From: Nitrospirota bacterium
Lineage (GTDB): Bacteria; Nitrospirota; Thermodesulfovibrionia; Thermodesulfovibrionales; Dissulfurispiraceae
Direction of reading: 5' to 3'
DNA length: 19,196 nucleotides
Assembly: GCA_040758355.1 (NCBI GenBank)
Contig: JBFLWF010000035.1
Coordinates: 1-19,196 of the forward strand
Shown here: positions 1 to 19,196 of the stretch, piece by piece
How the letters are laid out: the number at the start of each line of letters is the position of its first letter
How positions within the stretch are numbered: position 1 is the first letter of the stretch
The notes under the pieces: model-generated
Databases searched by the model: none
Seen by the model: only the letters and a program-made list of their open reading frames with translations
Told to the model about the DNA's origin: nothing
Position numbers and translations under genes: made by a program

Positions 1-315
1 GTCGGTGAGTATGCTGTATATCTTTTTCGCATCTGTTGATGCGTAGTTCAGATTGGGTATGTCCTGTCTGTTCTTGTAGTCTATGCCGATTACTATTGCA
101 AAGGTGTCTGGACGAGGTGAGGGGAGTTTGTCGTCTGTGATAGGTTCTTCTTTTTGCTTCTGTGGCTTGCCAACAGGTGACTTCCCTTGTTCGGGGGTCT
201 CATATGCAATCTGTATCTGAGCTCCTGTGGGGTCTTTGAACTCATACATGCTGCAGCCTACAGCTATTAAAAGGATGCTTGACAATAAAATTTTAATACG
301 CAAACCTGCTACCAT
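1..315 (-). CDS. Lipoprotein with caspase-like (peptidase C14) domain, N-terminal 105 aa; truncated by window edge
   Basis: Own translation (not in ORF track): MVAGLRIKILLSSILLIAVGC-SMYEFKDPTG...PRPDTFAIVIGIDYKNRQDIPNLNYASTDAKKIYSILTD. Lipobox AVGC, Pro/Lys-rich linker, then FAIVIGIDY...L.YA..DA, the typical start of a C14 domain. AAGGAAG lies upstream of ATG 315. Catalytic His/Cys would be outside the window. Confidence 0.8.
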   Translation of the reverse strand, partial: MVAGLRIKILLSSILLIAVGCSMYEFKDPTGAQIQIAYETPEQGKSPVGKPQKQKEEPITDDKLPSPRPDTFAIVIGIDYKNRQDIPNLNYASTDAKKIYSILTD

Positions 316-326
316 CTAATCTTCCT

Positions 327-929
327 TTAATACTCCAATGTTTTTATTATTTCGGGCACAGCCTGCTGCATGGCAGCCTGCATTGCCTTGCGAAGAGAAA
401 TTCCCTTTGTCTCGGCTGTACCGGCCATAGACCGCTCGTCACCTTTTGCAGCAATGTTCAGTACCTTTGCCTTAATGCCGTTTTTCCATATCTCGACTGT
501 AAACTGTATATCGCTTATAGCACCTACTGTCCAGAACCCTGGATCCTGATCCACAAATACCTTTAAAACAGTTAAATCAATCCCCTTTGATGCATCGTTT
601 GGAAGTTCCGACACGGTCCTCGTATTATATCCTGCAAAGCTCAACTCCTGTACCAATGCGCCCACAATCCAGTCTCCAATATTATTTTCTGTAACTACAT
701 CTGCTGTTTTCATTCCCATTGTATTTTTTACGGTTCCGATAACCCAGCTATTTGACTTCTTAACAAGACTATGCTGCTCTTTCGGCTTTGCAATAAACAC
801 CTCGCCTGAACCACCTCTTGCATTGACAGTTCTTTCGTAAGACAAATCGACCTTCTGGTCAACAAATGCACAGCTTGCTGATGCCAATAAAACCAATCCT
901 GCTAAAATAGTTATTGCTCTCTTTAACAT
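327..929 (-). CDS. Uncharacterised lipoprotein, YajG-like alpha/beta fold
   Basis: Start moved to ATG 929 (MLKRAITILAGLVLLASASC; lipobox-like SASC; G-rich SD upstream). About 200 aa with the pattern 'VGALVQELSFAGY...IDLTVLKVFVD' and a C-terminal amphipathic helix, as in YajG-type lipoproteins. Confidence 0.55.
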   Translation of the reverse strand: MLKRAITILAGLVLLASASCAFVDQKVDLSYERTVNARGGSGEVFIAKPKEQHSLVKKSNSWVIGTVKNTMGMKTADVVTENNIGDWIVGALVQELSFAGYNTRTVSELPNDASKGIDLTVLKVFVDQDPGFWTVGAISDIQFTVEIWKNGIKAKVLNIAAKGDERSMAGTAETKGISLRKAMQAAMQQAVPEIIKTLEY

Positions 930-1041
930 AACCCTACCCCCCCCTCTGAGAATATTCAAAAGATTTCATATAAGTATGCCATATTGCCTACTTATATTAT
1001 CCAACAAAAATTAATGTTTTTAAAGATAAAAATGAAGATGC

Positions 1042-2313
1042 TTATTCCCTGTAAAAACGAATTTTGTCAATCCAGAGGGTTCCTTTGACAGGAGGACTCG
1101 TATTGATATGCACTCCTATACTCACAGACTCTATACGGCTTATGTCAAGTATTTGTTTGCCGGGTTTGGCGCCGAATCTCGTGGCTCCTCCCTTTATCCA
1201 GCCTCGCCCTATGGTCAATTGTTCGAACGGAATCTTCACACTTTTCCAATCAGTCCCTATTTCAAATGTCGATACCCACGCATCAATCACATTTGGGTCT
1301 TCCTTTTCAGAAACAAGAAGCCTCACAATGCCTGTGAGCGGCATATCAGCCTTTATATAAAATTCTATGCCGCTGAAAAGCGAAAGGTCTCGCTTCTTTC
1401 TGTTTTCTATATGGGCAAATACGTCCCTTATTGCCTTTGTGAAATCAAAATCCACTTTGAGCGAGTGTCTTGAATTTTCAGCTCCTTGGGAGGCATCCAT
1501 TTTCACAAAATAAACGCCCTTGGCCCTGTACCCTATCTGCCATGAAGAGTTAACCACATCCCCTTCAAAATCCTCATCTAAGGCGTTTGCATCTCTTAAT
1601 TCCGTAGGCTTAAACAACGGCGTTCTCAATGCAATTGCTGCTATTGCCTGCCCTGTCCTGACATTTACAAGCCTGAGATTTATATCCCATGTTCCTCCGA
1701 CTTCAGCCAGCGTGCCTGTAAGAATGAGGTCTGCTGTCAGGAGTTTGCCTATCACCTTTTCCGGCGGTTCCTTTGTAAGGCCGCTTAGGCTTAATTCGAG
1801 TTCGTTTATTATTGTCTTCAGTTTTGACCTTTCAACAACTGTGAAATGTCCTGAGTCTATTAAGGCAGAGGTCAATCCCTCGAGGGTAACTCTTCCCGCC
1901 TCTTTTTCTCTGCCCCTGATAACCTCGAAATCCACTACGGCGATTGTTTTTTGGGGAATTGGCAATCTCACCAATGCGCCGACTTCAAAAGCATGAGGCC
2001 GCTCAAGAACAGCAGTTATGGCATTGCCCCTCACTTCCTTTATGACAGCGGGTATGCTGTTTATCTCTGTTTTTATGCCTTCAAGGAAAAGGCTCTTCTG
2101 GATGACCTGATGTGCGATTTCACTTATGGGAATATCAGGGGTTGGTTTAAACTCAGGCAGTTTCAGCGATAGAATAATCTCGTTAGCCGAAATGCTCTGA
2201 ACAGTTCCTTCAATATACTGAAGGCTGACAGGCCCGGGCTGTTCTAAAGGCTTGACTACAGTACATGCTGATAGAAGGATGATTGTTAATAAAATCTTAA
2301 ATGCCTGTTTCAT
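1042..2313 (-). CDS. Lipoprotein: N-terminal beta-rich domain + FlgO/CsgG-fold domain + CIA30/CBM11-like C-terminal domain
   Basis: Lipobox LSAC. Middle region KTIAVVDF...SGHFTVVERSKLKTIINE..LSLSGL...IGKLLTADLILTGT...INLRLVNVRTGQAIA is CsgG/FlgO-like. C-terminus DLSLFSGIEFYIKAD...WKSVKIPFEQL...GTLWIDKIRFY resembles CIA30/CBM11 beta-sandwiches. Confidence 0.75.
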   Translation of the reverse strand: MKQAFKILLTIILLSACTVVKPLEQPGPVSLQYIEGTVQSISANEIILSLKLPEFKPTPDIPISEIAHQVIQKSLFLEGIKTEINSIPAVIKEVRGNAITAVLERPHAFEVGALVRLPIPQKTIAVVDFEVIRGREKEAGRVTLEGLTSALIDSGHFTVVERSKLKTIINELELSLSGLTKEPPEKVIGKLLTADLILTGTLAEVGGTWDINLRLVNVRTGQAIAAIALRTPLFKPTELRDANALDEDFEGDVVNSSWQIGYRAKGVYFVKMDASQGAENSRHSLKVDFDFTKAIRDVFAHIENRKKRDLSLFSGIEFYIKADMPLTGIVRLLVSEKEDPNVIDAWVSTFEIGTDWKSVKIPFEQLTIGRGWIKGGATRFGAKPGKQILDISRIESVSIGVHINTSPPVKGTLWIDKIRFYRE

Positions 2314-2317
2314 CCTT

Positions 2318-2806
2318 TTACCCTCTTAGACCTTTTAAAATCCCTGCATAGGATGTGATGATTTTGCCGGTGGAAGAACTGACAAGTTCTATCTTGAGCT
2401 GCCATTTCCTTTTATCTTTGAATGGTGTGAGTATTCCCCTAACAACTGCATCTGCATTGTCTGATGTAACACTGAAGCGGCTTTTACCAGAAAATACCAA
2501 TTGCCTTTTAAATTCCTCGGTTATCTCTTTTGTGACCATTGTAGGTCTCCCTCTGATGTCTGTAAAGTCTTTTACCATTATGGTTTTTATATCCCTTCTG
2601 ACTATCTCTGCAGCAATGACCCCTGCTATCTTTTTCAGTTTCTGGATATGTTCTTCTGAAAGGGGTTTATATTCCTGCACCCCTTCTGATGAGGAAACAG
2701 GAGTAAAAAATAATAATAGGATAATCAGCATAAAGGATGAGGGCACTAACACACTATAAATATTCATTGCATGAAACCCGCATCCTGTATGCTGTGTTGT
2801 ATTCAT
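2318..2806 (-). CDS. Small exported FlgO-like (CsgG/TolB_N fold) protein
   Basis: Hydrophobic N-terminal segment, then KTIMVKDFTDIRG...ITEEFKRQLV...FSV...ADAVVRGIL...LKIELVSSSTGKIITS. ATG directly follows the TAATAA of the upstream gene; the exact start is uncertain. Confidence 0.6.
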   Translation of the reverse strand: MNTTQHTGCGFHAMNIYSVLVPSSFMLIILLLFFTPVSSSEGVQEYKPLSEEHIQKLKKIAGVIAAEIVRRDIKTIMVKDFTDIRGRPTMVTKEITEEFKRQLVFSGKSRFSVTSDNADAVVRGILTPFKDKRKWQLKIELVSSSTGKIITSYAGILKGLRG

Positions 2807-2809
2807 TTA

Positions 2810-3727
2810 TTACTTCAATACAAATGCCACCTTTGCACCTGCAAGGAAGTTCGTCTTCTGATTTGCAGAGAAAATCTTTACGGCATCCTCATCTGTAACC
2901 TGCAGGTCTGACGGAGAGACCGTTCCAGATGCCTTTACAATCAAAGGGTTCTTTACGCCCCGTGTTTCGAGTGCTGCCTTTGCCTTGTCAACGCTGTTTG
3001 TGTATTCGCCGCACCCCTGCTCAACAAGCACCTTCTGGCTTATCTTTGAAGGGTCATAAAGCACTTCTCCCTTTGGTGTAAAAATCCTGTTTATCAGGGC
3101 AGGCCTGAAACCTTGCTCTGTGGCATCAATAACAAGGCCATCATAACGTTCTTCAATAGCCACCGGTTTTGCCCTGTACGCAGGTTTTGGCTCAACCATG
3201 GCCTGTTTAATGGAAGGGTCTCCAAGCATCTTTTCGTACATGACCTTTGCAAAACTCTGCGGCCCTGTCATGCCTATTTTCACAAAGACAACAGCCACTT
3301 CTTCCTGCGGATTATACTCTTTGTAAACAACCTTTGCACCCTTTACAAAACCCTCGACTGCTGTCCTCACAACATCATACTGGAGCGAGGCATCTTTTAC
3401 CAAGGTATCACCCACCACTGCCACGCCTTCGAGGATCTCTGCGAGTTGGCGGTATGCAAGGGCTGTTGCTGCCCTTTCGGCAGTAAGCCTCTTTTGTGCA
3501 GGAGACTTTGCGTTGGGAGACGGAAGCCCTTCAGCCATGACAAGGATATAATCGCTTATAAATGCCTGCTCCTGCGATGTTGTGATGGAAAGGTTATTCT
3601 GGTTCAACCACTGGTTTGCTGATTGAAACCTCAAGTCAGCCTGAGATGGAACGGCTTCCTGCTGGGCAAGGGCAATGCCTGCTAAAGCAAGAACTATCAA
3701 CAGTGCAACAAATACATTCCTTTTCAT
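2810..3727 (-). CDS. Exported LPP20/FlgP-like domain protein
   Basis: Signal peptide ending ALA and SD AAGGAGG. AQKRLTAERAATALAYRQLAEILEGVAV.GDTLVKD...VEGFVKGAKVV is LPP20/FlgP-like. The second domain (YDGLVIDA...NPLIVKA...AKVAFVL) is commonly paired with it. Confidence 0.7.
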   Translation of the reverse strand: MKRNVFVALLIVLALAGIALAQQEAVPSQADLRFQSANQWLNQNNLSITTSQEQAFISDYILVMAEGLPSPNAKSPAQKRLTAERAATALAYRQLAEILEGVAVVGDTLVKDASLQYDVVRTAVEGFVKGAKVVYKEYNPQEEVAVVFVKIGMTGPQSFAKVMYEKMLGDPSIKQAMVEPKPAYRAKPVAIEERYDGLVIDATEQGFRPALINRIFTPKGEVLYDPSKISQKVLVEQGCGEYTNSVDKAKAALETRGVKNPLIVKASGTVSPSDLQVTDEDAVKIFSANQKTNFLAGAKVAFVLK

Positions 3728-3750
3728 AATGCCTCCTTATTTATTTTCAA

Positions 3751-5004
3751 TTAATAAACATTCATTCTCTGTTTCAATACCCTTATGGCTAAAATAGCCT
3801 CTGCTCCGTCCACAGGTGAGTCAATCCTGAACTCACCCGACAACTCCCCTTCCATTATCCCCCTTGTCGTCATGTTCATAACGGCATTGTAAAATGGCGA
3901 TGTAGGCCGAACATCAGGGAATGGAGATTTGGAATGTCCGAAGAATGCAGTGGCCATCTTTTCGTCGCCGGTAAGTTTTATTAAAACATCCTCAAGGATA
4001 AATGCCATCTCACCTCGCCTTACAACATCTGTAGGCTTAAATAAATATGCCTTTGTCGTCTCATCATACTTTGGCTCGAGGCCTCTGACCTTCCATTTCA
4101 GAATAGTGAGTATTTCCTCTTTGAAATGATAATTAAGAATATCTGCAGGTGTAAATTCAGCCTTCATTTTATCGATCATGGATTGGGCAGGTATGCGGCC
4201 TGCAAAGAGTTTGTCGATCTTCATCTCATCAATTAGTAATGCTGCCAAATCTCCGCGTGTAATCGAGTCCTTGACAGCTATTTTCCTTCCAACATCACCC
4301 ACTGTTATTCCTGCCATTGCACGGACAATCTTGTCTGTCTTTTTCCATGCCCTGTCGGCCTTTTCATGCCACTTGCCCTCTCTCTTTGCATTAAGCACGC
4401 TCGCAAACTTATCCTTTGCCTGCTGAAATTCAAATGCTTCGAGATAGGCAATGCCCAAGAAATAGCTTGCGGCCTCGGTGCCCTGATAATAGACCAACTT
4501 TTTTTCGTCCACTTTTAATTCCCGGATCTCTCCATAGGCATCCTCTACTGTCTTGAGCCAATCACTTGTTTTGATGGCAGTGTAAACGCGCATTGTCGCC
4601 ATAAGGTAATCGAATTTATCTTCATTGGTTTCTGAGAGTTTATTTGCCTTCTTCAGATATTCCATCGCCCTGTCAATCTCAACCTTTCTAAATCCTGCAT
4701 CTGTCTGTTTTTTTACCTTCTCTGCAGTGACAATGGCAAGTCCGCTGTGAGCAGGAGAAAATTTCTCCTCGCAGTAAACAGCCCTGTCAAATTTGGACTG
4801 AGCAACATCAACCTTCCCCTGCTCCAGTGCATTCATACCTGTCAGGTAGTGATGCTGCGGGTTGTCCTCGGGAGAAGTGCACTTAGCAACCTCCTTCGGA
4901 GCACAATTAGAAAGAAAAAACAGGACAAATATTGTGATGGATAGTAAAATCCATAGTTTCTTATCCCTTTGCCCATTGTCTATTGCCCATTGCCTATTGC
5001 TCAT
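3751..5004 (-). CDS. TPR + S-layer homology (SLH) domain lipoprotein
   Basis: AGGAGGTG SD favours ATG 5004 over 5034. Lipobox LSNC; TPR-like helices (HYLTGMNALEQGKVDVAQSKFDRAV; ASYFLGIAYLEAFEFQQAKDKF); SLH-like motifs ITRGDLAALL, FKPTDVVRRGEMA and FPDVRPTSPFYNAV...GIMEG...FRIDSPVDGAEA. Confidence 0.8.
   Translation of the reverse strand: MSNRQWAIDNGQRDKKLWILLSITIFVLFFLSNCAPKEVAKCTSPEDNPQHHYLTGMNALEQGKVDVAQSKFDRAVYCEEKFSPAHSGLAIVTAEKVKKQTDAGFRKVEIDRAMEYLKKANKLSETNEDKFDYLMATMRVYTAIKTSDWLKTVEDAYGEIRELKVDEKKLVYYQGTEAASYFLGIAYLEAFEFQQAKDKFASVLNAKREGKWHEKADRAWKKTDKIVRAMAGITVGDVGRKIAVKDSITRGDLAALLIDEMKIDKLFAGRIPAQSMIDKMKAEFTPADILNYHFKEEILTILKWKVRGLEPKYDETTKAYLFKPTDVVRRGEMAFILEDVLIKLTGDEKMATAFFGHSKSPFPDVRPTSPFYNAVMNMTTRGIMEGELSGEFRIDSPVDGAEAILAIRVLKQRMNVY
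4969..5003. repeat. Five tandem heptamers (TTGCCCA TTGTCTA TTGCCCA TTGCCTA TTGCTCA) at the start of the TPR-SLH gene
   Basis: Read directly; encodes MSNRQWAIDNGQ on the - strand. Confidence 0.85.
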
Positions 5005-5043
5005 TTTAAAACACCTCCTGTTTTCATTTGCCATTCTGAAGCA

Positions 5044-5085
5044 AGTTTACACCCTGTGAGATGCCATGTAAAGGTAATTTTCACA
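5044..5085 (-). promoter_or_regulatory. Sigma70-like internal promoter with upstream TGTGAAAATTACC element
   Basis: - strand: TGTGAAAATTACC TTTACA (5072-5067) - 17 nt - TAAACT (5049-5044). Confidence 0.6.
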
Positions 5086-5088
5086 CTT

Positions 5089-6009
5089 TTATTTCGATGT
5101 GGATACATCATCGTTTTCCTTGATAACATCGCATTTGCCGCTCACACACAAAAGCGTTGCATTTGAACCTTCAACTTCGATAACTTTCAACTCTGCCACA
5201 ACATCGGTCAGTCTTTTTATGACTGCTCCCGTTGTAGGGCTTTTTATCTCCTTTACAACCTTGACTACATAAAATATAGTGTCGTTTGTTACTCCGTGGT
5301 CTTTGCCCGCATCGATAATACATGTCTTATTCGTCTTATCCACATAAGCCACCTTTGCATTAATTACAGCCTCTCTCAATTTAGCTGACTGCTCCTTGAA
5401 TTGTTTAACGATATTCGCAAGTGCGTTCTTTGTTGCAGTCCCCAGAATCGTATTTGCCATATTCGATGCATCAATATTTGCAAGCCCCTCTATACTCACA
5501 CCGGATGCCGATTCTTCAGCAGAGCCTTCAGCAGCATTGAGGATTTCCGCAGTTGTTGTGTCTATCAATCGCGCATTAACGGCAACCTTGGCATAGTTCT
5601 GTTTAACGCCGATACCAAAAATGCCCATGACCTTTGAGTCTATGCCAAACTGCGTAACACTTCCGACAATAACAGCACTCACCCCTAAAATCTTCCCTAT
5701 CTTTGCTACCTCTGATGTATCCACAAGTCCGCTTGCCGATAATTTCTGCTCGCTGATGACCTTTTCCAACTGACTCCTTTCTATAACCTTGAATGTCCCA
5801 TCCTTGACGAGTTCTGTAACCAGGATATCTGCAACCGCACGGCCGATTTTGAAGTTTCTTGCCTGAAAGTGTGCCGATACTGCAGCGTCCTCAAAATCAA
5901 GGACGGCTATCTTCTTGACACCGGCATCTGCCGCATATCCCTGAAATACGATTAATACTGAAAATAAAAAAAATATCATTATTTTTTGATGCCATTTCAC
6001 TACTGTCAT
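5089..6009 (-). CDS. CsgG/HfaB family protein with FlgT C-terminal-like beta domain
   Basis: KKIAVLDFED...ADILVTELVKDGTFKVIERSQLEKVISEQKLSASGLVD...KIGKILGVSAVIVGSVTQFG...VAVNARLIDTTTAEI is a strong CsgG pattern. C-terminal AKVAYV...IIDAGKDHGV...VAELKVIEV resembles FlgT_C. SD AGGAGGAG; signal peptide without lipobox. Confidence 0.85.
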   Translation of the reverse strand: MTVVKWHQKIMIFFLFSVLIVFQGYAADAGVKKIAVLDFEDAAVSAHFQARNFKIGRAVADILVTELVKDGTFKVIERSQLEKVISEQKLSASGLVDTSEVAKIGKILGVSAVIVGSVTQFGIDSKVMGIFGIGVKQNYAKVAVNARLIDTTTAEILNAAEGSAEESASGVSIEGLANIDASNMANTILGTATKNALANIVKQFKEQSAKLREAVINAKVAYVDKTNKTCIIDAGKDHGVTNDTIFYVVKVVKEIKSPTTGAVIKRLTDVVAELKVIEVEGSNATLLCVSGKCDVIKENDDVSTSK

Positions 6010-6038
6010 AAAATACTCCTCCTTTGTATCTTAAAGCC

Positions 6039-7166
6039 TCATCTCTGATATGCAACGGTTATCGAATATGGTGAAAAGTCCATTATTTTAAAATTACCCT
6101 TCTGACTTATGCTGTTTGCCAGGTATACTAAATTTTCAGGATAGCTTACGATAAACTCGCCAAGCCCTTTATCTTCAACATTGGTAACCCATGCTATATT
6201 CTGGAGAATTTCCTTGACCTCAAAATTGGTGCTCATATCACTAACGCCTGTAACCTTGACCTGCACCTTCTTTGCAACTCCCTTTATATACCGGGAAACC
6301 TTTTCAAGAATAACCGGCGTCATCTTCTGCGACAACTCCTTCATTCCACTTGCCACAGCATCCTCAACACCCGCTGCAAGTCCCTTCCCTTCTTCGGTAC
6401 CTGCTGTAAGTATAACCATCTTCCCTGTATTGTCCCTTGCTATAATACGATAGGTGAGCCTTACTGTTACATTATTAAAAGGCATGGATATGCCGTATCC
6501 TATGCCCTCTCCCTTTTTTGTGGAAATAGCATAATCGATTTTACCTATGAGGAGGATGTTTGAGAGGAATTTATACACAAGGCTTCTCAGGGTCAGGAAA
6601 TTGCCGCTCTTGATTGCATTTTCAACCTCTTTGGCTTCCAATGTATGGGTCGGTGCGACATCGACAACAGTATATCCCTGCTCTGTCAGCCTGCCGATAA
6701 GATTCTCTGACAGTATATTGGTCTCCTCATATTCATCTCTTATACTCCCCGGTTTCTTTGCAGGAATGAATACAGCCACAGAGTTATTAAGGGCAAGGGA
6801 AGATATGGCGTCTTTTGCCTTTGTAGGCTCAATACATGCATTTATCTTTACCCATATAGTTCCTTTCCTGTTTTCTTGTTGTAATAGCTTATATCCGGCA
6901 ACAAACCCCCTTATGTTTTTGCTCACAGCGTCGTCAACAAGGGCCATGTTCTGCACTACAGACTGAGCCTTCACCTCAACGCCAACCACCTGTTCTACTG
7001 CTGACCATTTTGCCCGTGCTATTGCCTCTGCCTTTGCAGAGGGGATATCATTGTTTATGATGACAGCTTCGCCCTCCGAGTCAATGCACTTCACCTCGCA
7101 CAGTCCTTCTGACGCGAAAAAAACACAGATAAACAGAAAAATCCAAACCACATTTTTATAATACAC
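6039..7166 (-). CDS. Flagellar assembly protein T (FlgT) N-terminal domain-containing exported protein
   Basis: SEGEAVIINNDIPSAKAEAIARAKWSAVEQVVGVEVKAQSVVQNMALVDDAV...GFVAGYKLLQ...WVKINACI matches FlgT_N. It is followed by an alpha/beta domain (LTEQGYTVVD...ILLIGKI) and a small C-terminal domain. GTG start with G-rich SD. Confidence 0.75.
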   Translation of the reverse strand: MYYKNVVWIFLFICVFFASEGLCEVKCIDSEGEAVIINNDIPSAKAEAIARAKWSAVEQVVGVEVKAQSVVQNMALVDDAVSKNIRGFVAGYKLLQQENRKGTIWVKINACIEPTKAKDAISSLALNNSVAVFIPAKKPGSIRDEYEETNILSENLIGRLTEQGYTVVDVAPTHTLEAKEVENAIKSGNFLTLRSLVYKFLSNILLIGKIDYAISTKKGEGIGYGISMPFNNVTVRLTYRIIARDNTGKMVILTAGTEEGKGLAAGVEDAVASGMKELSQKMTPVILEKVSRYIKGVAKKVQVKVTGVSDMSTNFEVKEILQNIAWVTNVEDKGLGEFIVSYPENLVYLANSISQKGNFKIMDFSPYSITVAYQR

Positions 7167-7218
7167 CGAAATAACCCCCCTGACTCCGCCAAACTTCAGT
7201 ACCTCATAGATTAAAGGT

Positions 7219-7260
7219 AGTGTAAAATGGCGTACTTATAGTGTCAAGTGAAAATTCACC
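7219..7260 (-). promoter_or_regulatory. Sigma70-like promoter of the FlgT/CsgG cluster with abutting GTGA-N4-TCAC palindrome
   Basis: - strand: GGTGAATTTTCAC TTGACA (7247-7242) - 17 nt - TACACT (7224-7219). Confidence 0.7.
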
Positions 7261-7268
7261 TTCCTTAA

Positions 7269-7967
7269 TTATTCGTTATACACATCTTCCGCATTGGGTG
7301 AAATCAAAAAATAACCGCCCTCCTCTTTTACCATCTCTCTGAAGGCAAGCACCTTCATAACCTTGGTTATGGCCTCCCTTGATGCGCCTGTGTGTGCTGC
7401 AAGCTCCCGGTGTGTGAGTTTCTTTATCCTGAAAAATCCATCCTTATCCTTATGACCCTCTGTCTTTGCAATTTGCAATAATAGCTTTACAAGCCTCTGG
7501 CTCACATCTAAAAATGCCAGGGACTCTATCATGCCGTTTGCCATTCTCATCCTCTGGACAATTGCCGAAAGCAGGTCAATGGCAATCATCGGGTCATTTT
7601 TGACTGCAAGGAGAAACTTCTCCCGCCTTAATATGCCAAGCGTTGAATCATCTACTGCTATCATTGTTGCAGACCTGGGCTTGCCATCGAGGAGGCTCAT
7701 CTCGCCGAAGAAATCCCCCTTGCAGAATGTTGCGAGTATGAGTTCCTCTCCATCCTGATTCAGAAGGGATGCCCTTACAGTCCCTTCAAGGACTATATAA
7801 AGGTCTGTGCTGTTGTCGGACTGATAGAATATAGTCTCGCCTTTACTCACATTACGAACAATGAAATCACCTGACAGATGTCTTAAATGTCTGTCCGTGA
7901 GTCCTTTGAAAATGGGGAGCTCCTTAAGGAAGCCCATTATCAATTCTGTGCTCGTGCCTTTTTCCAT
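7269..7967 (-). CDS. Crp/Fnr family transcriptional regulator
   Basis: cNMP-binding cassette GDFFGEMSLLDGKPRSATMIA, hinge LAFLDVSQRL, and HTH LTHRELAAHTGASREAITKVM. No FNR-type Cys cluster. Confidence 0.95.
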   Translation of the reverse strand: MEKGTSTELIMGFLKELPIFKGLTDRHLRHLSGDFIVRNVSKGETIFYQSDNSTDLYIVLEGTVRASLLNQDGEELILATFCKGDFFGEMSLLDGKPRSATMIAVDDSTLGILRREKFLLAVKNDPMIAIDLLSAIVQRMRMANGMIESLAFLDVSQRLVKLLLQIAKTEGHKDKDGFFRIKKLTHRELAAHTGASREAITKVMKVLAFREMVKEEGGYFLISPNAEDVYNE

Positions 7968-7975
7968 AACGGTGT

Positions 7976-8030
7976 AATTTTATCAGATTTCAAAAAATTC
8001 CTGAATATAAAAATTGATTATGATAAAATT
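7976..8030. promoter_or_regulatory. Putative divergent extended -10 promoters forming a 10-bp inverted repeat
   Basis: AATTTTATCA (7976-7985) and TGATAAAATT (8021-8030). Each reads TGnTAAAAT toward its gene. Confidence 0.5.
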
Positions 8031-8036
8031 TGATTT

Positions 8037-8813
8037 ATGACAATCATTAATATTCAAAAAATCGGGGAAAATATAATCAACGCCTTTAAATATCTGGAGG
8101 GGTATTATACGTTATTGTGTTATTCCGTAAGGAATATCCCGTTATTGCGCAGTGCCCCAATCCGTTCCGTCTTATACAAACAGCTATATTTCACGGGGAT
8201 AGAAGCATTGAGCAAAGTGGCTGCAATAGGGATACTTATAGGGATTGTCATCATCACGCAAATAGTGAATCTTGTGGGATCAAATGCCGTGCTTACAGGC
8301 AAGATACTCATCTGGACGGTAGTAAGAGAACTCGGGCCATTGCTTGCTGCCATAATAATCATAGCACGAAGCGGCACCGCCATCTCCTCAGAACTCGGCT
8401 CGATGAAGGTCAACAGCGAGACCGACAGCCTCAGGATTATGGGGATTAATCCCGTGGATTATCTCATTGTTCCGAGGGTTGCAGGAATTACGGTCTCTGT
8501 CTTCATCCTTGCGTTCTACTTTCAGGTGATGGCAATTGCAGGAGGGTTGGCATTCACATCGGTATTCCTCGACCTCTCTTTTTCACAACACCTCAAAGGC
8601 ATATTCTCGGCCCTGAAGCTCTTTGAGGTTTTAGTCTCCCTTCTTAAAAGCCTTGTGTTCGGATTGTTGATCTCCATAGTTTCATGCTATCAGGGCTTCA
8701 GCGTGGAGGCATCAATAACAGAAATTCCGCAGGCAGCTACGAGGGCGGTTATGCAGAGCCTGTTCTTAGTATTCATATTTGATGGTATAATTACAGTTAT
8801 ATCGTTTGTATGA
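8037..8813 (+). CDS. mlaE: MlaE family ABC transporter permease
   Basis: QLYFTGIEAL, VVRELGPLLAAIIIIARSGTAISSELGSMKVNSETDSLRIMGINPVDYLIVPRV, KSLVFG, IPQAATRAV: classic MlaE motifs. Confidence 0.93.
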   Translation: MTIINIQKIGENIINAFKYLEGYYTLLCYSVRNIPLLRSAPIRSVLYKQLYFTGIEALSKVAAIGILIGIVIITQIVNLVGSNAVLTGKILIWTVVRELGPLLAAIIIIARSGTAISSELGSMKVNSETDSLRIMGINPVDYLIVPRVAGITVSVFILAFYFQVMAIAGGLAFTSVFLDLSFSQHLKGIFSALKLFEVLVSLLKSLVFGLLISIVSCYQGFSVEASITEIPQAATRAVMQSLFLVFIFDGIITVISFV

Positions 8814-9451
8814 TACGGCTCGAAAATATTGCTACAGAGCATTTTCATGCGATCTCGTTTGAGATAAGGAGGGGCTCTGAATGCAAGGTTATCACACGTT
8901 CCGAATATGAAAACAGAAAGCTGCTCAATGTCATCGTGGGACTCGAAAGACCTGCATCGGGAAGGGTTTTTCTGCTCGACAAGGAAACATATGCGCTTTC
9001 CGAAAAAGATTCTTTCAGGCTTTTCAGCAGGATTGGGGTGGTTTTGAAAGACGGGGGATTGATCAGCAACCTAAAGGTATGGGAGAACATAGTGCTTCCT
9101 GTATCGTACCATACAGGAGAAAAGCCGGAGGATGTGGAAGCAAAGGTAAAACAGAGATTCAACGAGGCAGGTATAGATATCCCCTATCTTAAAGAGTTAA
9201 TAGGAAGACTGCCCGGGCCCCTGCCTGTTCATGAGAAAAGGCTGATAGGACTCATAAGGGCAATGCTCATGGAGCCTGAACTGATGATATACGACTCTTT
9301 ATTTGAAGGGCTGAGCCCCGATATGTCGGATAGATTAATGAAAATGACCATGAATTTCCACACAGAAAAACAGGGCAGAACATCTGTGTATATCACCTTT
9401 GACGAACAATCCATCAAGGATGTAAGGGCAGATATTATCTTAAGGATATAA
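8810..9451 (+). CDS. MlaF-like ABC ATPase homologue with degenerate catalytic motifs
   Basis: ABC scaffold is clear (GLERPASGRV, LISNLKVWENIVLP, RAMLMEPELMIYD) but Walker A, Q-loop, signature, catalytic Glu and H-loop are all replaced. ATGA overlap with mlaE. Confidence 0.85.
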   Translation: MIRLENIATEHFHAISFEIRRGSECKVITRSEYENRKLLNVIVGLERPASGRVFLLDKETYALSEKDSFRLFSRIGVVLKDGGLISNLKVWENIVLPVSYHTGEKPEDVEAKVKQRFNEAGIDIPYLKELIGRLPGPLPVHEKRLIGLIRAMLMEPELMIYDSLFEGLSPDMSDRLMKMTMNFHTEKQGRTSVYITFDEQSIKDVRADIILRI

Positions 9452-9460
9452 GGATATGCT

Positions 9461-10417
9461 ATGGGATTAATGAAAGAAACGGATGAAAGGTTTATCGGCA
9501 TAGAAAAGAAGATAGGGCTGTTCGTCATTATCGCAATCGCAGGTATTGTCACTGCAATGGCTTTTATCGGGATACAGCACGGCGTGTTCACGCCCAGGAC
9601 AAAGATATATTTCATAGCCGACAGCGGACAGGGTATAAATGAAGGAACCGCAGTAAAACTCAGCGGATTTAAAATAGGAAAGGTTGCGAGATTATCCCTG
9701 GACGATGTGGCAAGGGTAAAGGTGGAGCTATCCATAAATACCAAATACATGAAATGGATAAGGACAGACTCAAAGGCAAGGCTCTTCAAAGAAGGGTTTA
9801 TCGGCGACAGTGTTATCGAGATAACGCCGGGTTCGGCAAAGGCGAAACAGGTTACTGAAAATGGAATAATAGAATTTGAAAGGGCAAAGGGGCTCGGCGA
9901 AATAGCAGAGGAGTTAAAAGAGGAAATAAAGCCTGTTCTAAGCGATGTAAAAGAGATAATCCATTACATCAACGATCCGCAAGGCGATGTTAAACAGACA
10001 TTAAAAAACCTCCGCAAAATTTCGGAAGACCTACCCGAGACACAGCAGAATCTGAATGCCCTGCTCAAGGATGCCGACAAAGGAGTGAATGCGACAACAA
10101 AGAAAATAGATTCCGTACTCGATTCAACAAAACAGACCATGAACACTGTTGACGGCCTCATAAAGAAGGTTGACAAGGACATCCCGAATATCCTTGAAAA
10201 GACAAACAAGAGTCTCGAAAATATCCAGAAGACAACCGAAGAGATAAAAAAGGCGACAGAGCAGACAGCACCTAAAATCCCGTCCATGCTCAAAAAAGGC
10301 GAAGACGCAGCAGAAGGAGCAAAAGAGATTACCGATTCCGTAAAAAAGATATGGCCAATAAGGCTATTCATAAAAGAGCCTGAAGAAAAGGCATTAAATA
10401 CCGACAGCTATGAATAA
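9461..10417 (+). CDS. MlaD/MCE family protein with long helical C-terminal region
   Basis: N-terminal TM (IGLFVIIAIAG); MCE domain GINEGTAVKLSGFKIGKV...IRTDSKARL...GFIGDSVIEITPGS; about 160 aa coiled-coil-like tail ending WPIR. Confidence 0.92.
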   Translation: MGLMKETDERFIGIEKKIGLFVIIAIAGIVTAMAFIGIQHGVFTPRTKIYFIADSGQGINEGTAVKLSGFKIGKVARLSLDDVARVKVELSINTKYMKWIRTDSKARLFKEGFIGDSVIEITPGSAKAKQVTENGIIEFERAKGLGEIAEELKEEIKPVLSDVKEIIHYINDPQGDVKQTLKNLRKISEDLPETQQNLNALLKDADKGVNATTKKIDSVLDSTKQTMNTVDGLIKKVDKDIPNILEKTNKSLENIQKTTEEIKKATEQTAPKIPSMLKKGEDAAEGAKEITDSVKKIWPIRLFIKEPEEKALNTDSYE

Positions 10418-11366
10418 GACAGGCAAAAGGCAATGGGCTATAGGCAATAGGCTGAAGGATTTTATTCCTAATTTCTTCGGCCTTAAGCCTAAAATCGCCT
10501 ATCGCCTTTTGCCTATTGCCTTTTGCCTGTTTTTAATTGGTTGCGGGGCAAAACATCCAACATTATCGGATGCCCATCTTTCAGCAGTCAAGCTCAACCA
10601 GAGGGCAGAATCTTCATTTAAAAACAGCGATTATGAAAATGCGCTCAGGCTTTACAATGAGGCGATCAAAATCAACCGCTCCATCGAAAACATTGATGGC
10701 ATTGCGATAAATATAATTAATATAGCTGCCACTTATCGCAAGCTCGGTGATAAAGACAATGCACACAAACAGATAAACGAAATACTAAACGCATCGCCAA
10801 TTGCCTATAACCCGATACATCTGTCCGAGGCAGCATTTTTAAAGGCAATGCTTTATTTTGACGAAAAGAATTATGATAAAACATTGGAATGGACGGACAA
10901 ATCATTAACCTTCTGCCAAAGCTCGCAATGCAGCGACATAGGCAAAGTTTATAATCTCAAAGGAAGGGCTTATCTTGAAAAAGGCGATGTCGCTTCAGCT
11001 ATTTCCTATGGGAATAAAGGACTTGAGTCAAACAAGGAAGATGGGCATAAAACTGAAAGGGCGAATTCCCTGAGATTGATTGCAAACGCAAAGTTAATGA
11101 AAGGTGAATACGAAGATGCACGAAAATTTTACGAAGACGCCCTTTCCATAGACAAGAAATTGGAAGCAGGCAGAAAGATAGCGATGGATCTGATGGGCAT
11201 AGGCAATACATTCTTTAAGCAGAAAATGTGCGGGGATGCGGTTAAGTATTATCAGAGGGCGCTGTCCGTCATCGAGGGCTTAGGAGACGTGCAGGGCGCT
11301 AAGGAAGCCGTTGAGATGATAAATAAATGCTCTCAGACCTCAAGCAAAAATCCGGACAAAAAATAA
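10410..11366 (+). CDS. TPR lipoprotein
   Basis: Lipobox LIGC after an elongated N-region; about six TPR-like repeats (DYENALRLYNEAIKI, GEYEDARKFYEDALSI, AVKYYQRAL); overlaps the MCE stop codon. Confidence 0.85.
   Translation: MNKTGKRQWAIGNRLKDFIPNFFGLKPKIAYRLLPIAFCLFLIGCGAKHPTLSDAHLSAVKLNQRAESSFKNSDYENALRLYNEAIKINRSIENIDGIAINIINIAATYRKLGDKDNAHKQINEILNASPIAYNPIHLSEAAFLKAMLYFDEKNYDKTLEWTDKSLTFCQSSQCSDIGKVYNLKGRAYLEKGDVASAISYGNKGLESNKEDGHKTERANSLRLIANAKLMKGEYEDARKFYEDALSIDKKLEAGRKIAMDLMGIGNTFFKQKMCGDAVKYYQRALSVIEGLGDVQGAKEAVEMINKCSQTSSKNPDKK
10419..10530. repeat. 34-bp imperfect inverted repeat built from GGCAATA-type heptamers, 44-nt loop
   Basis: Left arm 10419-10452 ACAGGCAAAAGGCAATGGGCTATAGGCAATAGGC; reverse complement of right arm 10497-10530 ACAGGCAAAAGGCAATAGGCAAAAGGCGATAGGC; 30/34 match. 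Confidence 0.9.
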
Positions 11367-12544
11367 CGGAGACTTCTTTAATACTCTTAGAGTCTTTAAA
11401 ATCCTTCCGGAGGAATAACAATCTCAGCGCATCGGCATCTCTCGCTTATTACGGACTGTTCGCCTTAGTCCCGCTTTTCCTGCTCGTAATATTTCTGCTC
11501 GGCACTTATATCATATCGTCAGACGCAGCGATCAGAGGCGTAGAGACATTATCATCCCGCCTTCTGCCCGAATTCCATAATACATTAATGAATGAAATCT
11601 ATTATCTTGCCGTCAATAAAAACCTCTGGGGATTTATAGGCATTGCAGGTCTTTTCTGGACTGTTATGCCGCTCGCGGGAGCTATAAGAAGCGCGTTCGC
11701 AAAAATATTCATAACAGAAGAAGGACCGGCATTTCTCAAGGCGAAGTTTCTTAACGCTCTGGCGGTCGCGGCCTTGCTGTTGACCTTTATTTTCCTTGTG
11801 ACAGGCGAAATAGTTTATTCCCAGGTCGTTTCCATGCATTTGAAAAAATTACCGGCGCTGTTTCGCATAACCGATATTGCCGTTCCAATGCTGATAACAG
11901 CATTCTTTATGTCGGTTTTCTATTTTATCTTCTCGCCCGTAAAGCTGCGGCTGCCGCATCTCATCGCAGGAGCAACAGCGAGCGCGGCTCTATGGGCAAT
12001 CGTAAGTCCGGCGTTTACCTTCTTTATGACATTCAATCCGCAGTTCGGCATTGCGTTCGGCTCATTAAAAGCCGTATTCATAATTCTTATCTGGGTCTAT
12101 TATTCCTTTGCGGTCATACTTTTCGGAGCTGAGGTCATATCCAACTCAAAAAGGAAAGACATCCTGCTGCTTAAGGGCATGTTTTTAGGAAAGGCTCGCA
12201 AAAGACTTATAACACGGTTTATGAATACTTACGGCTCGGGCGAAACAGTCTTCAAAGAAGGCGGGAAGGGTAATGACATGTTTTATGTGCTCTCCGGCTC
12301 TGTAGCCATAAGCAGGCACGGGCAAATATTAAGAATGATAAAACAGGGAGAATACTTCGGAGAAATGTCCATGCTTCTGAATGCTCCGAGGACTGCCGAT
12401 GCGGTTGCGGCAGAGAACGGCACCCAACTCATATCTATCTCAAAAAACAATTTCGAAAATATTCTCAGGGAAGAGCCTAAAATCGTAATTTCAATACTAA
12501 AAGAAATGGCCTTGAGGCTTAAGACCACAAACGAGTATCTGTGA
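11327..12544 (+). CDS. YihY/BrkB family inner membrane protein fused to a C-terminal cyclic-nucleotide-binding domain
   Basis: SASLAYYGLFALVPLFL, multiple TM segments and FGSLKAVFIILIWVYYSFAVILFGAEV (YihY). Then GETVFKEGGKGNDMFYVLSGSV...GEYFGEMSMLLNAPRTADAVA (cNMP). Start is uncertain (40-nt overlap with the TPR gene). Confidence 0.9.
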   Translation: MLSDLKQKSGQKITETSLILLESLKSFRRNNNLSASASLAYYGLFALVPLFLLVIFLLGTYIISSDAAIRGVETLSSRLLPEFHNTLMNEIYYLAVNKNLWGFIGIAGLFWTVMPLAGAIRSAFAKIFITEEGPAFLKAKFLNALAVAALLLTFIFLVTGEIVYSQVVSMHLKKLPALFRITDIAVPMLITAFFMSVFYFIFSPVKLRLPHLIAGATASAALWAIVSPAFTFFMTFNPQFGIAFGSLKAVFIILIWVYYSFAVILFGAEVISNSKRKDILLLKGMFLGKARKRLITRFMNTYGSGETVFKEGGKGNDMFYVLSGSVAISRHGQILRMIKQGEYFGEMSMLLNAPRTADAVAAENGTQLISISKNNFENILREEPKIVISILKEMALRLKTTNEYL

Positions 12545-12546
12545 TG

Positions 12547-13101
12547 TTAGCCGAAACGCCTTCTGAGAACTTCTATAAAATACCTGTCAGCTTTTTGAGA
12601 AAACAGTTCAAGAAGTGAATATCCTCGCTTCCATGAAACGAAAATTGACAGGCAGATCGCGATTGCGGTAATAACAATATTCTGCCAGGCGTTCAATTCC
12701 CACTGCCCGCTCCATGTAAACTCAACATCCGAAAACGGCCAGAAATAAGGTATAGACCAGAAAGAGCCTTCCGGCCCGGCGGAACCAACTATATCACCAA
12801 GAAGATGGAGATGAAAGCTCGCAAATGAGAGCGACGCGGCGAGCGCACGCTTCTTCGCGAGCAAAAAGGCGGCGATAGTTACGATAAGGGCAAACGCAAG
12901 ATTATGCGTCAGCACATGATGGAACTGCTGATACCACTTAAATGGCTCATTAGCGTTTTGCATGAAAATATCCGCTACAATGCCGAGGCCGTCTATGTCA
13001 GGAATAACACCGGAAGCAGTTACGATGATCCTGTCGCGCCTTTCAAGTTTTGCGCCGTCAGCCACAAGCCAGCTTATGAAAAAATGCGTAACCGGGCTCA
13101 T
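12547..13101 (-). CDS. Membrane-bound metal-dependent hydrolase (YdjM-like)
   Basis: Motifs MSPVTH, IPDID, HHVLTH, HLLGD and P.FWPFS with hydrophobic segments. Confidence 0.85.
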   Translation of the reverse strand: MSPVTHFFISWLVADGAKLERRDRIIVTASGVIPDIDGLGIVADIFMQNANEPFKWYQQFHHVLTHNLAFALIVTIAAFLLAKKRALAASLSFASFHLHLLGDIVGSAGPEGSFWSIPYFWPFSDVEFTWSGQWELNAWQNIVITAIAICLSIFVSWKRGYSLLELFSQKADRYFIEVLRRRFG

Positions 13102-13189
13102 TTTATTTTTGCTTCAATAAAACGCAAATGCCAGAAATGATTATGACGATCCATATTCTCATGATTAATTTTATCTTACCTCACTACTA

Positions 13190-13840
13190 CTATTTTTTAA
13201 ATTGTTTATTCAGCCAGTTAAACGGTATATCCACATTAAAAAATAATATCGCAGGCTCGCCTGTCTTTCTGTGTTTAACTTCCATCTTATCATAACTGTG
13301 CCCGTTGGATTTTATAAGGCTCTGGCGCACGACCTCGAAGCCTATCATTCCGAGAAGCGTATACTCCTCGCCTGTCTCAATAACTATAAAGGCAGTCTCA
13401 GGGGTCTTGCCGTCTCCGGAATCAAGGATCGAATCAACAAGCCCACTCGTAACAAAGTGATGGAAATTGTATCGCTCGACATTCTTCATCTCGCTGAAAG
13501 CTATGCTGGAGACAAAATGGGCTTCGATATCAACAAACTTCTTTTCGAGTATTACTTGTGCATCGGCAATAGCCTTATCGTAATCCTTATTTCTCAGCGC
13601 TTCAAACATCTCGGATTTTTTCGCCTTATCGTCGCTGTAAGGATTATAAGCGGCTGTTTCGGCATACGAAAGCCTTAACGCCCTGAAATCAACAGTGCGG
13701 TCGAAATTCATTACCCGTTTAAGCAGGGTCTGATAGTCAGAAGTTTTTTTAGGCTGATCTTCTTCGGCAAAAATATTTCCGCTGAAAAAACTTGAGACAA
13801 CTATGGAGAGTAAAATTGCCAAAAGCAGCCTGAATATCAT
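13190..13840 (-). CDS. Exported DUF4919-like protein
   Basis: Signal peptide, a TPR-like segment, and ILDSGDGKTPETAFIVIETGEEY...YDKM...LFFNVD, recalled as the DUF4919 pattern. Confidence 0.7.
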   Translation of the reverse strand: MIFRLLLAILLSIVVSSFFSGNIFAEEDQPKKTSDYQTLLKRVMNFDRTVDFRALRLSYAETAAYNPYSDDKAKKSEMFEALRNKDYDKAIADAQVILEKKFVDIEAHFVSSIAFSEMKNVERYNFHHFVTSGLVDSILDSGDGKTPETAFIVIETGEEYTLLGMIGFEVVRQSLIKSNGHSYDKMEVKHRKTGEPAILFFNVDIPFNWLNKQFKK

Positions 13841-14121
13841 TTTGCGTCTCCGGTTATTGTTTTAGACCTGTAAGCCTTGAGATGTTCGCTGGTTTTGAAA
13901 TATTGCGATACTGTAAGGGCGATGCTGATTATCAATAAGAAAAAGGCAATATAGCGGGTCCATCTTTTCCCTTTCAACCCTGCTATAAGCAGGAGAACTC
14001 CTGCCGTAGCAAAGCAGATAAATCCAACCGCAGGGTTCATAGCCATCCCGCCTATCAATACAAGAAAGATAGATAGCCCGATGAGAACTTTTGGGTCTGA
14101 GATATTTGGAGACTTGTCCAT
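13837..14121 (-). CDS. Small membrane protein (about 3 TM, 94 aa)
   Basis: ATG 14121 overlaps the upstream TGA (TGATG) and its own stop overlaps the next ATG (ATGA); three hydrophobic stretches. Confidence 0.7.
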   Translation of the reverse strand: MDKSPNISDPKVLIGLSIFLVLIGGMAMNPAVGFICFATAGVLLLIAGLKGKRWTRYIAFFLLIISIALTVSQYFKTSEHLKAYRSKTITGDAK

Positions 14122-14651: not shown

Positions 14652-14653
14652 TT

Positions 14654-17950: not shown

Positions 17951-17985
17951 AGGCAATCCTTTTACTTTCAAGCTATTTGAACCCA

Positions 17986-18027
17986 ATTATATCAGCACAA
18001 CCATAGCAGGTAAAGGTAATTTTCACA
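17986..18027 (-). promoter_or_regulatory. Sigma70-like promoter of the CHAT operon with upstream TGTGAAAATTACC element
   Basis: - strand: TGTGAAAATTACC TTTACC (18014-18009) - 17 nt - TATAAT (17991-17986), with TGn extension. Confidence 0.7.
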
Positions 18028-18108
18028 TAGCCCTACACTTCACATGGATAAATACCGGGCATTACGTTTTGCGCCATAATCTGCTCCCTGTTATCTACCT
18101 CAGTTTTA

Positions 18109-19071: not shown

Positions 19072-19196
19072 GGCTCATCGTGGAAGAGAGTGGGTAAACC
19101 GATGGACTTGAAGCGGTATAACATGGCTTCAAATAATGGGGAAAGAGCTTTCAAAGGGGCGAGAAAATCCGTATGATTACCGTATGGGAAAAAATA
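19072..19196. mobile_element. Probable insertion sequence end (ISL3-like terminal inverted repeat)
   Basis: GGCTCATCGTGGAAGAGAGTGGGTAAA starts exactly where ATPase homology stops, next to an AT-rich site (ATTATTTT). It resembles GGCTCTTCG...GTGGGTAA ends recalled for ISL3 elements. No transposase is visible in the window. Confidence 0.5.

Follow-up and report, generated by a model that had tools for sequence, protein, structure and literature searches.

A non-flagellar gene cluster with FlgT-, FlgP- and CsgG-like proteins in a Nitrospirota bacterium shares a promoter motif with dispersed genes and may encode a wall-tethered periplasmic scaffold

The window analyzed in this work is a whole contig (C35, positions 1-19196) of a Nitrospirota bacterium whose genome, designated G000, comprises 2.77 Mb and is 99% complete. 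Eight minus-strand open reading frames (ORFs), named G1 to G8, fill positions 1-7166, and we have studied them as a putative envelope system together with a promoter motif and a candidate regulator found in the same contig (other G numbers designate the genomes of relatives). A preliminary description of this DNA had proposed eight co-directional genes, all with export signals and several with a CsgG/FlgO/TolB_N-like fold, in a window free of flagellar and curli genes, and these points were borne out. An N-terminal hydrophobic stretch was found in the eight ORFs by a hydropathy script, and a lipobox was detected by a simple script in four of them (G3, G6, G7, and G8). The CsgG/FlgO/TolB_N-like fold is supported for G2, G6, and the middle domain of G1, and weakly for G5. 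Of the 20 ORFs of the window that were scanned, none was a flagellar or curli gene; the flagellar genes of the host, including FlgI and flagellin-domain genes, are located on another contig (C5). Ribosome-binding sites favor starts at 5004 for G3 and at 929 for G7, and no strong terminator stands out (10 predicted vs. 6.8 +/- 2.9 in shuffled sequences). The features of the window are the following:

3751-5004, minus strand: G3, lipoprotein with TPR-like helices and SLH motifs (Pfam SLH, E 9.4e-14); core gene, predicted wall tether
2810-3727, minus strand: G4, FlgP/LPP20-type domain with hairpin insert plus Tp0624 D2-type domain, by profiles and Foldseek; no lipobox; core gene, predicted ring former
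6039-7166, minus strand: G1, FlgT-like protein, no lipobox; SHS2/FlgP-type N-terminal domain, TolB_N/CsgG-type middle domain, and ferredoxin-like C-terminal domain replacing FlgT_C
5089-6009, minus strand: G2, CsgG-family domain (Pfam CsgG, E 5e-34) fused to a FlgT_C-like domain; no lipobox
2318-2806, minus strand: G5, minimal FlgO/CsgG-like domain without long hairpins, by FlgO matches in its family and a profile match to the G2 family; accessory
7219-7259, minus strand: operator-like 12-bp palindrome (7248-7259) and sigma70-type promoter (-35 at 7247, -10 ending at 7219) before G1
5044-5084, minus strand: second operator-like palindrome (5073-5084) and internal sigma70-type promoter before G3
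18010-18026, minus strand: third copy of the palindrome with a -35 box, before the TPR-CHAT gene
7269-7967, minus strand: Crp/Fnr-family regulator with a cyclic-nucleotide-binding domain (Pfam cNMP_binding, E 2.6e-24; HTH_Crp_2); candidate regulator
14654-17986, minus strand: TPR-CHAT protease lipoprotein (Pfam CHAT, E 3.5e-59, plus TPR), putative member of the same regulon; start probably at Met13, near 17950
1042-2313, minus strand: G6, lipoprotein with a CsgG-like domain (Pfam CsgG, E 6e-13) and a weak CBM11-like C-terminal domain; variable accessory
327-929, minus strand: G7, lipoprotein, weakly YajG/Lipoprotein_16-like (Pfam E 0.0033, below cut-off); variable accessory
1-315, minus strand: G8, first 105 residues of a C14 (caspase-family) lipoprotein truncated at the contig end (orthologue L029:12681-13838)

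The preliminary description had omitted the Crp-family gene, the operator-like motif, the TPR-CHAT protease encoded in the window, and the fact that the locus likely continues on other contigs.

The G3 and G4 genes constitute the core of the locus. Their conservation was analyzed in the best 80 of 122 G4 loci, from Nitrospirota and Geobacterales-type records, a sample that leans to close kin and whose members are not independent, and in a phylum-wide set of 151 genomes of Nitrospirota. Locus counts were taken from unpruned ORF maps, searching for G1, G2, and G5 by profile and for G6, G7, and G8 by BLAST. G3 is present in 70 of the 80 G4 loci and is adjacent to G4 in 68 of them by a strict gap rule, while a 69th failed through a 61-base ORF overlap. 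The ten loci without G3 comprise four at contig ends and six real absences. Phylum-wide, G4 was found in 47 of the 48 genomes positive for G3, and in families f19 and f23, where the order of the two genes is reversed, they are still adjacent in the loci fetched (7/7). An outer-membrane beta-barrel protein (TIGR04219) was considered as a further part of the core and rejected, being present in 9/80 loci and having no match in the host genome. A relative of the same genus (G001) carries, at positions 10984-11310 of locus L034, a 108-amino acid fragment of G4 with two sites of the promoter motif described below, no G3, and no close Crp match; this locus is apparently a decaying system.

The lipobox cysteine of G3 (Cys34) is invariant across 61 sequences. 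Its SLH match is above the Pfam cut-off, and the SLH-type arginine is kept in two of the three motifs, i.e., Arg250 in 60/61 and Arg330 in 61/61 sequences. No other SLH gene was found in the host genome. When the G3 profile was compared with the PDB, SLH chains appeared only at E 0.1-0.5.

G4 (305 amino acids) has no Pfam match and ends after the D2-type domain. Its profile matches chains of flagellar motors, namely 9hmf (E 3.6e-13) and FlgP in 8z5n (E 8.4e-10). Its structural model (predicted local distance difference test, pLDDT, 73.6) matches Tp0624 (5jir) with a Foldseek E of 6e-8 over 270 columns, and its C-terminal domain aligns with Tp0624 D2 with Z 13.1 and an rmsd (root-mean-square deviation) of 2.6 over 117 residues. 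In the FlgP family, ring formation correlates with an insert between the SHS2 helix and the second strand (PMC12222027). The FlgP-type insert of G4 is ungapped in 72/72 rows, and a lipobox-like motif was seen in 1 of 72 homologues. At E 0.001 the profile retrieves 3660 representatives, and a large part of them have only the LPP20-type domain in common. Atlas contained no structure for G3 or G4, and a feature look-up there gave LPP20-domain and SLH-TPR clusters for G3/G4, which are leads only. One natural CsgG-G4 fusion (P0067) was detected among 27 homologues scanned, and FlgT_N-LPP20-G4 fusions also occur. Since the ring-type proteins of this locus carry no lipids, G3 is the candidate anchor.

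The G1 protein resembles FlgT in its first two domains. Its matches to Pfam FlgT_N (E 2.5e-5) and to NCBIfam LipL46 (E 5.7e-11) are below and far below the respective cut-offs; its profile matches the Campylobacter motor-scaffold chain 9hmf (E 3.7e-7), and the top Foldseek match of its model (mean pLDDT 74.8) is FlgT (3w1e, E 2.2e-10). The middle domain aligns with the LPHT-ring chain 8z5n (Z 10.9, rmsd 3.6, 150 residues), tied with a Chlamydia protein (Z 11.3). The third domain (residues 297-367) aligns with ferredoxin-like folds (Z 7.8, rmsd 2.4, 71 residues) and not with FlgT_C. In another relative (G110, L132:6894-7752) G1 is broken into two ORFs and the middle part is missing.

The G2 protein is a clear member of the CsgG family (117.9 bits vs. 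a Pfam cut-off of 20.8) that carries a FlgT_C-like domain, detected with E 0.028 in G2 and 3e-5 in an orthologue. Compared with CsgG (4uv2), six residues fewer span its first hairpin region, in which the FGIG turn is kept; the second hairpin falls outside the CsgG alignment and varies or is absent in several homologues. Several G2 homologues carry longer glycine-rich hairpins, and 6/18 show a lipobox-like motif. G5 itself has no Pfam match; FlgO matches were obtained for 4/17 members of its family (best E 1.6e-4), its profile matches the G2 family with probability 86, and a lipobox-like motif was seen in 1/17 homologues. G5 and G7 gave nothing significant against the sequences of solved structures. 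Taken together, the analyses supported the FlgT, FlgP, CsgG, SLH, and caspase labels given previously, and the FlgO and CBM11 labels only weakly.

Beyond the core, G1 is found in 35/80 loci, G2 in 30/80, and G5 in 21/80, and the genes G6, G7, and G8 in 1, 3, and 3 of 80, respectively. The recurrent neighbors in the 80 loci are transglutaminase-like genes (33), GNA1162/beta-helix/TPR genes (16), Crp genes (16), FecR-TPR genes (10), and CHASE2 adenylate cyclase genes (9), and ORFs with a caspase domain are present in 11 loci. Gene content and order vary widely. The locus is thus not an eight-gene unit: the two core genes are frequently accompanied by a G1-G2 layer, and the remainder is a shuffled cassette. 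The idea that the cluster is conserved as a unit therefore holds for G3-G4 and fails for the eight genes. The link of G6, G7, and G8 to the core is supported better by the shared promoter motif than by gene order (1-3 of 80 loci). Clusters of another type were observed at L035:8619-12800 and L036:7576-11118, with LPP20 tandem proteins, FlgT_N, CsgG, exported proteins of 1180-1393 amino acids without Pfam match, and no G3; FlgI was not found in their genomes. The host also contains a separate four-gene lipoprotein cluster (C9, positions 5201-7606) with a CsgG paralogue and a gene that reads as GNA1162-like, without the motif.

The system is independent of flagella. Of the 48 genomes positive for G3, 25 have FlgI and 23 do not, and FlgI is present in 63 of the 103 G3-negative genomes. 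Structural flagellar genes were found in 0/80 loci, and chemotaxis-type genes in a few. A relative with a 100% complete genome (G034) contains the core and neither FlgI nor flagellin. The Crp-G3-G4 block lies directly behind flagellar genes in a single case among ten further loci (G088, L131:1-7626), and G110, a genome of that genus, does not show this arrangement; gene names in these two genomes were assigned from a reading of the sequences and of how they match C5. Neither CsgF nor curlin was found in the genomes searched (0/5 for each), with a positive E. coli control. The non-flagellar, non-curli character suggested from the window was thus supported in these samples.

A 12-bp near-palindrome, GTGAA-WW-TTCAC/TTACC, touches the -35 box before G1 and before G3 and is conserved in relatives. 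A 17-base pattern was derived from these two sites, and a relaxed version follows a variant seen in a relative; the host genome contains 6 copies of the former and 7 of the latter. All seven copies (7/7) precede system-type genes, and five of them were not used in deriving the motif: these are located before the TPR-CHAT gene of the window, a second TPR-CHAT gene, a DUF4139 gene, a GNA1162-TPR gene, and, on contig C19, a FecR/FlgT_N/WD40-caspase/CHASE2-cyclase operon. No copy appeared in 200 shuffles of the window and 5 shuffles of the genome. The 12-mer alone occurs 52 times in the host genome, counting both strands, and thus the specificity of the motif resides in its position relative to the -35 box.

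In the phylum-wide set, the motif is present in 35/48 G3-positive and 11/103 G3-negative genomes, a reversed control matching 17/151, and related genomes are not independent in these counts. In genus g30, the motif and G3 coincide in the same 5/10 genomes, and in 13 genomes of f19 the motif lies 240-340 bases ahead of the G4 match. Thirty sites were inspected (27 in relatives and 3 in the host), of which 15 precede system-type genes and 6 precede other exported proteins; FecR genes lie behind 6/30. Accessory genes relocate to other contigs and yet retain the motif, such as the G6 orthologue of genome G004.

The TPR-CHAT protein shows its His and Cys motifs at residues 968 and 1019. The GC content of its gene is 34-40% over much of its length, vs. 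42-46% in most other DNA of the window, and the gene or its TPR part may have been recently acquired or exchanged. Four minus-strand genes downstream of it (12547-14657) encode a 178-amino acid exported protein, a small membrane protein, a DUF4919 protein, and a YdjM protein; they are probably part of the TPR-CHAT transcript and therefore would be under the same motif.

The Crp/Fnr-family protein encoded at 7269-7967 retains the motifs of the cyclic-nucleotide pocket. Genes of this family lie upstream of the core in 16/80 loci, and the recognition helix SREA[IV][ST]K is conserved in 16/16 linked copies and in 5/5 distant f19 orthologues. In genus g30, a close orthologue was found in 2/2 carriers and in 0/3 non-carriers tested. 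In genomes G005 and G017, where the core was not found in these searches, a motif site still lies directly behind the Crp gene. Class II CRP sites are centered near -42, and the palindrome before the promoter is also centered near -42. Judging from these features, it is fairly probable that the Crp protein is the binder of the palindrome; Rex, FNR, and NarL-type regulators were also considered on the basis of their consensus sites, and a response regulator is a possible alternative. In Sinorhizobium, CHASE2 cyclases act with the Crp-like regulator Clr and FecR/TPR target genes (PMC5498481), and in Campylobacterota CHASE2 cyclases cluster with FecR and TPR genes (PMC9239204).

Divergently from the Crp gene, positions 8037-11366 (plus strand) contain lipid-transporter genes of MlaE/MlaF/MlaD type, the MlaD being a long coiled-coil protein, together with a TPR lipoprotein gene; they are linked to the core in 8/80 loci. 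They are followed by a gene (11327-12544, plus strand) whose product combines a YihY/BrkB membrane protein with a cyclic-nucleotide-binding domain in one chain; a family of similar size precedes the Crp gene or the core in 5/80 loci, and this fusion is a possible second sensor of cyclic AMP (cAMP) near the cluster.

Among the accessories, G6 matches Pfam CBM_11 with E 2.5e-4, below cut-off, and its comparison with the CBM11 structures of the PDB was not significant (E 1.1). The possibility that its N-terminal domain is FlgT_C-like was rejected, as it does not match the G2 profile. The 105 residues of G8 matched no Pfam family, and its His-Cys dyad lies beyond the contig end, being seen only in the orthologue L029:12681-13838. 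This orthologue has 385 amino acids, is 78% identical over 105 residues, and matches Peptidase_C14 (E 3e-15). G8 is labeled as a caspase because this orthologue carries both catalytic motifs, GHG and DAC.

Starts of caspase genes are located at three contig ends of the host (C35, C47, and C80) and caspase ends at three others (C63, C65, and C23), which is consistent with a collapsed repeat. C65 holds a FlgT_N-DUF4384 gene, an ankyrin-caspase gene, and a GNA1162-TPR gene, and overlaps an insertion sequence that in turn overlaps C80; C23 continues with the transglutaminase gene and polysaccharide-type genes, an arrangement also seen in the closed genome G003. The contig order C35-C65-C80-C23 is likely but unproven because the path crosses repeats. 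The near-identical caspase domains at these ends are fused to differing N-terminal modules (a plain lipoprotein, an ankyrin-TPR-PDZ protein, and an unknown domain), and to an S41 peptidase-PDZ module in L030, which suggests active domain shuffling.

The explanation that we prefer, tentatively and with slightly less than even confidence, is that these genes encode a co-regulated, probably cAMP-inducible, wall-tethered periplasmic scaffold of ring or disk type, non-flagellar, and deployed with exported proteases and transglutaminases. According to this proposal, a signal from outside or from the envelope would activate the CHASE2 adenylate cyclase, and cAMP-loaded Crp would bind the palindrome beside the -35 box and activate the regulon. 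G4 would then polymerize by means of its FlgP-type hairpin, G1, G2, and G5 would contribute layers of FlgT/FlgO-like type, and the lipoprotein G3 would hold the assembly between a membrane, likely the outer one, and the wall. Interchangeable accessories, many of them fused to CsgG-like or FlgT_N modules, would dock on this scaffold, bringing proteases, transglutaminases, and glycan-binding-like domains that would reinforce or remodel the envelope. The fusion of Tp0624 D1-D2 to an OmpA-like domain is a parallel to G4 encoded beside the SLH protein G3.

Several observations weigh against this scaffold. With respect to the core, the third SLH motif of G3 has no arginine, and the polysaccharide pyruvyl transferase of CsaB type (PF04230) was found in 0/5 genomes, with 9/14 controls positive. 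The model of G4 has a pLDDT below 50 over the insert (residues 105-121), and in six of the 80 loci, each covering about 10 kb upstream, G4 occurs but G3 does not. No lipobox was found by the simple script in G1, G2, G4, and G5, i.e., no lipid anchor like those of Vibrio FlgP and FlgO. In the 57 loci with at least 5 kb upstream, G1 is present in 30 and G2 in 27. As for the regulon, the exact motif was not found in 13/48 carriers; only 22 of the 80 loci showed it, all from Nitrospirota-type or unnamed records, and nothing clearly exported lies downstream at 9 of the 30 inspected sites. The half-sites of the CRP consensus are 2 bp farther apart than those of the palindrome, which differs from the Clr box as well; no precedent for such short spacing, for which the FLP site was a candidate, was found in the literature searched. 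Genomes G004 and G021 keep 5 and 3 sites though a stop interrupts their Crp matches, and G001, where no close Crp match was found, keeps its 2 sites. Finally, purified Tp0624 is a monomer (PMC5104382), and the loss of Lpp20 in Helicobacter pylori left flagella, motility, and bacitracin resistance unchanged (PMC11756786).

The alternative that survives best, possible and somewhat doubtful in our view, is that there is no single complex and that the genes, an envelope-stress or lifestyle regulon, encode independent or loosely paired proteins of the periplasm and outer membrane, of which only G3 and G4 may form a small unit. The wide variation in gene content and order, the accessories that still carry the motif on other contigs, and the monomeric state of Tp0624 agree with it, as does the occurrence of the CsgG/TolB_N fold in many envelope proteins with no relation to one another. 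What argues for a common assembly is that the adjacency of G3 and G4 persists across Nitrospirota and Geobacterales-type records, that the FlgP-type insert is ungapped, that G4 occurs fused to CsgG and to FlgT_N-LPP20, and that the three H-ring-type folds co-occur.

The preliminary description had also considered a pore. In such a reading, G2 would be a CsgG-type outer-membrane channel, braced by the other parts, exporting caspases, CHAT proteases, or other cargo. G2 is a clear CsgG homologue in whose first hairpin the FGIG turn is retained, longer glycine-rich hairpins occur in several homologues, and exported enzymes surround G2. The pore is nevertheless a weak and unlikely reading because G2 has no lipid anchor (a lipobox-like motif appears in 6/18 homologues), is shorter than CsgG in the first membrane hairpin, and does not occur in most loci; several homologues have no second hairpin, and neither CsgF nor curlin accompanies G2 in the five genomes searched.

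We consider quite unlikely that the assembly is the sensing arm of a cAMP loop, where a wall-anchored platform, FecR/TPR proteins, and exported caspases would pass a cue from outside on to the CHASE2 cyclase, Crp providing positive feedback. The FecR and CHASE2-cyclase genes in 10 and 9 of the 80 loci, the FecR genes behind motif sites, and the clustering of such genes in Campylobacterota (PMC9239204) would fit this idea, but the cyclase is missing from most loci and the FecR/TPR targets of Sinorhizobium were reported as dispensable for signal perception (PMC5498481). It is very improbable that these proteins are unlinked accessory rings of the flagellar motor, like Vibrio FlgT, FlgP, and FlgO, since, despite their best structural matches being motor rings, the FlgI and flagellin-domain genes of the host, the arrangement in L131, and the two-hybrid contacts of H. 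pylori Lpp20 and HP1454 with FlgP (PMC11756786), 23/48 carriers lack FlgI, G034 has the core without FlgI and flagellin, and no locus of the 80 contains structural flagellar genes.

Coming back to the wall-tethered scaffold, each of its parts has a known fold and the novelty lies in the system as a unit, the ring assembly being inferred. No description of the cluster or of the motif was found in the literature searched, which covers few subscription journals. FlgT, FlgP, and FlgO have been characterized as motor rings and CsgG as the curli pore, and thus, a flagellum-independent system with these folds would point to non-motor roles and to the origins of the rings. Through the shared motif, a vague cluster becomes a defined regulon for which a regulator and a signal can be proposed, so that its inducing conditions, the co-expression of its genes, and its phenotypes are open to direct tests; the motif also connects the caspase-like and CHAT proteases that are exported with an envelope program. 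A broader proposal, possible but doubtful, is that this is a widespread stand-alone ring platform, anchored to the wall and governed by its own cAMP-Crp circuit, which displays or exports interchangeable caspase-like and CHAT proteases and transglutaminases and represents the non-flagellar source of the motor proteins FlgT, FlgP, and FlgO. If true, such a platform would give the exported bacterial caspases a physical and regulatory context.

Comparison with known systems relates the regulatory part to the cAMP-Crp regulons of CRP or Clr type: the cyclic-nucleotide-binding domain and the Crp helix-turn-helix are present, whereas the spacing of the box departs from the canonical one. The CyaD/Clr regulon of Sinorhizobium meliloti likewise combines a CHASE2 cyclase, a Crp-family gene near the targets, exported FecR/TPR targets, and a palindromic box. 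That box is TGTT-N8-AACA, in contrast with GTGAA-N2-TTCAC/TTACC here, where Crp is the candidate binder and where structural proteins of ring type, caspases, CHAT proteases, and a DUF4139 protein are among the putative targets.

The Lpp20 operon of H. pylori (HP1454/HP1456) is likewise non-flagellar and encodes exported proteins of SHS2/Lpp20 fold, of which Lpp20 and HP1454 interact with FlgP in two-hybrid tests; the available part of the article on this operon (PMC11756786) mentions no SLH protein, Tp0624-D2 domain, or protease cassette. The family domain of the curli channel CsgG (PDB 4UV2/4UV3) is present in G2 and G6, and G2 retains the turn motif of the first hairpin. Unlike CsgG, G2 has no lipobox, its first hairpin region is shorter, the second hairpin is missing in several homologues, and a FlgT_C-like domain is added; the genomes searched yielded neither CsgF nor curlin.

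Tp0624 of Treponema pallidum (PDB 5JIR) is matched by G4 over most of the length of its D1-D2 unit; both proteins are exported, and both are coupled to a domain of wall-binding type. In Tp0624, this two-domain unit is fused to an OmpA-like domain, D3, the protein is a monomer, and it did not bind diaminopimelate (PMC5104382), whereas here the wall-binding domain is the SLH of a separate adjacent lipoprotein, G3.

The Vibrio H-ring (FlgT, FlgP, and FlgO; PDB 3W1E and 8Z5N), together with the FlgP basal disk of Campylobacter (9HMF), is represented here by fold, strongly for G1 and G4 and weakly for G5: the N-terminal and middle domains of FlgT are found in G1, the FlgT_C-like domain in G2, and the FlgP-type domain with its hairpin insert in G4. 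In Vibrio, lipid anchors hold the concentric rings that FlgT, FlgP, and FlgO form (bioRxiv 10.64898/2025.12.02.691832). In contrast to these motor structures, the present system is not tied to the flagellar motor (23/48 carriers without FlgI), G4 and G5 lack the lipobox of Vibrio FlgP and FlgO, and the three domains that FlgT carries in one chain are distributed here, as G1 ends in a ferredoxin-like domain and the FlgT_C-like domain lies on G2. To the ring-type folds it adds the Tp0624-type domain of G4, an SLH lipoprotein, and exported enzymes.

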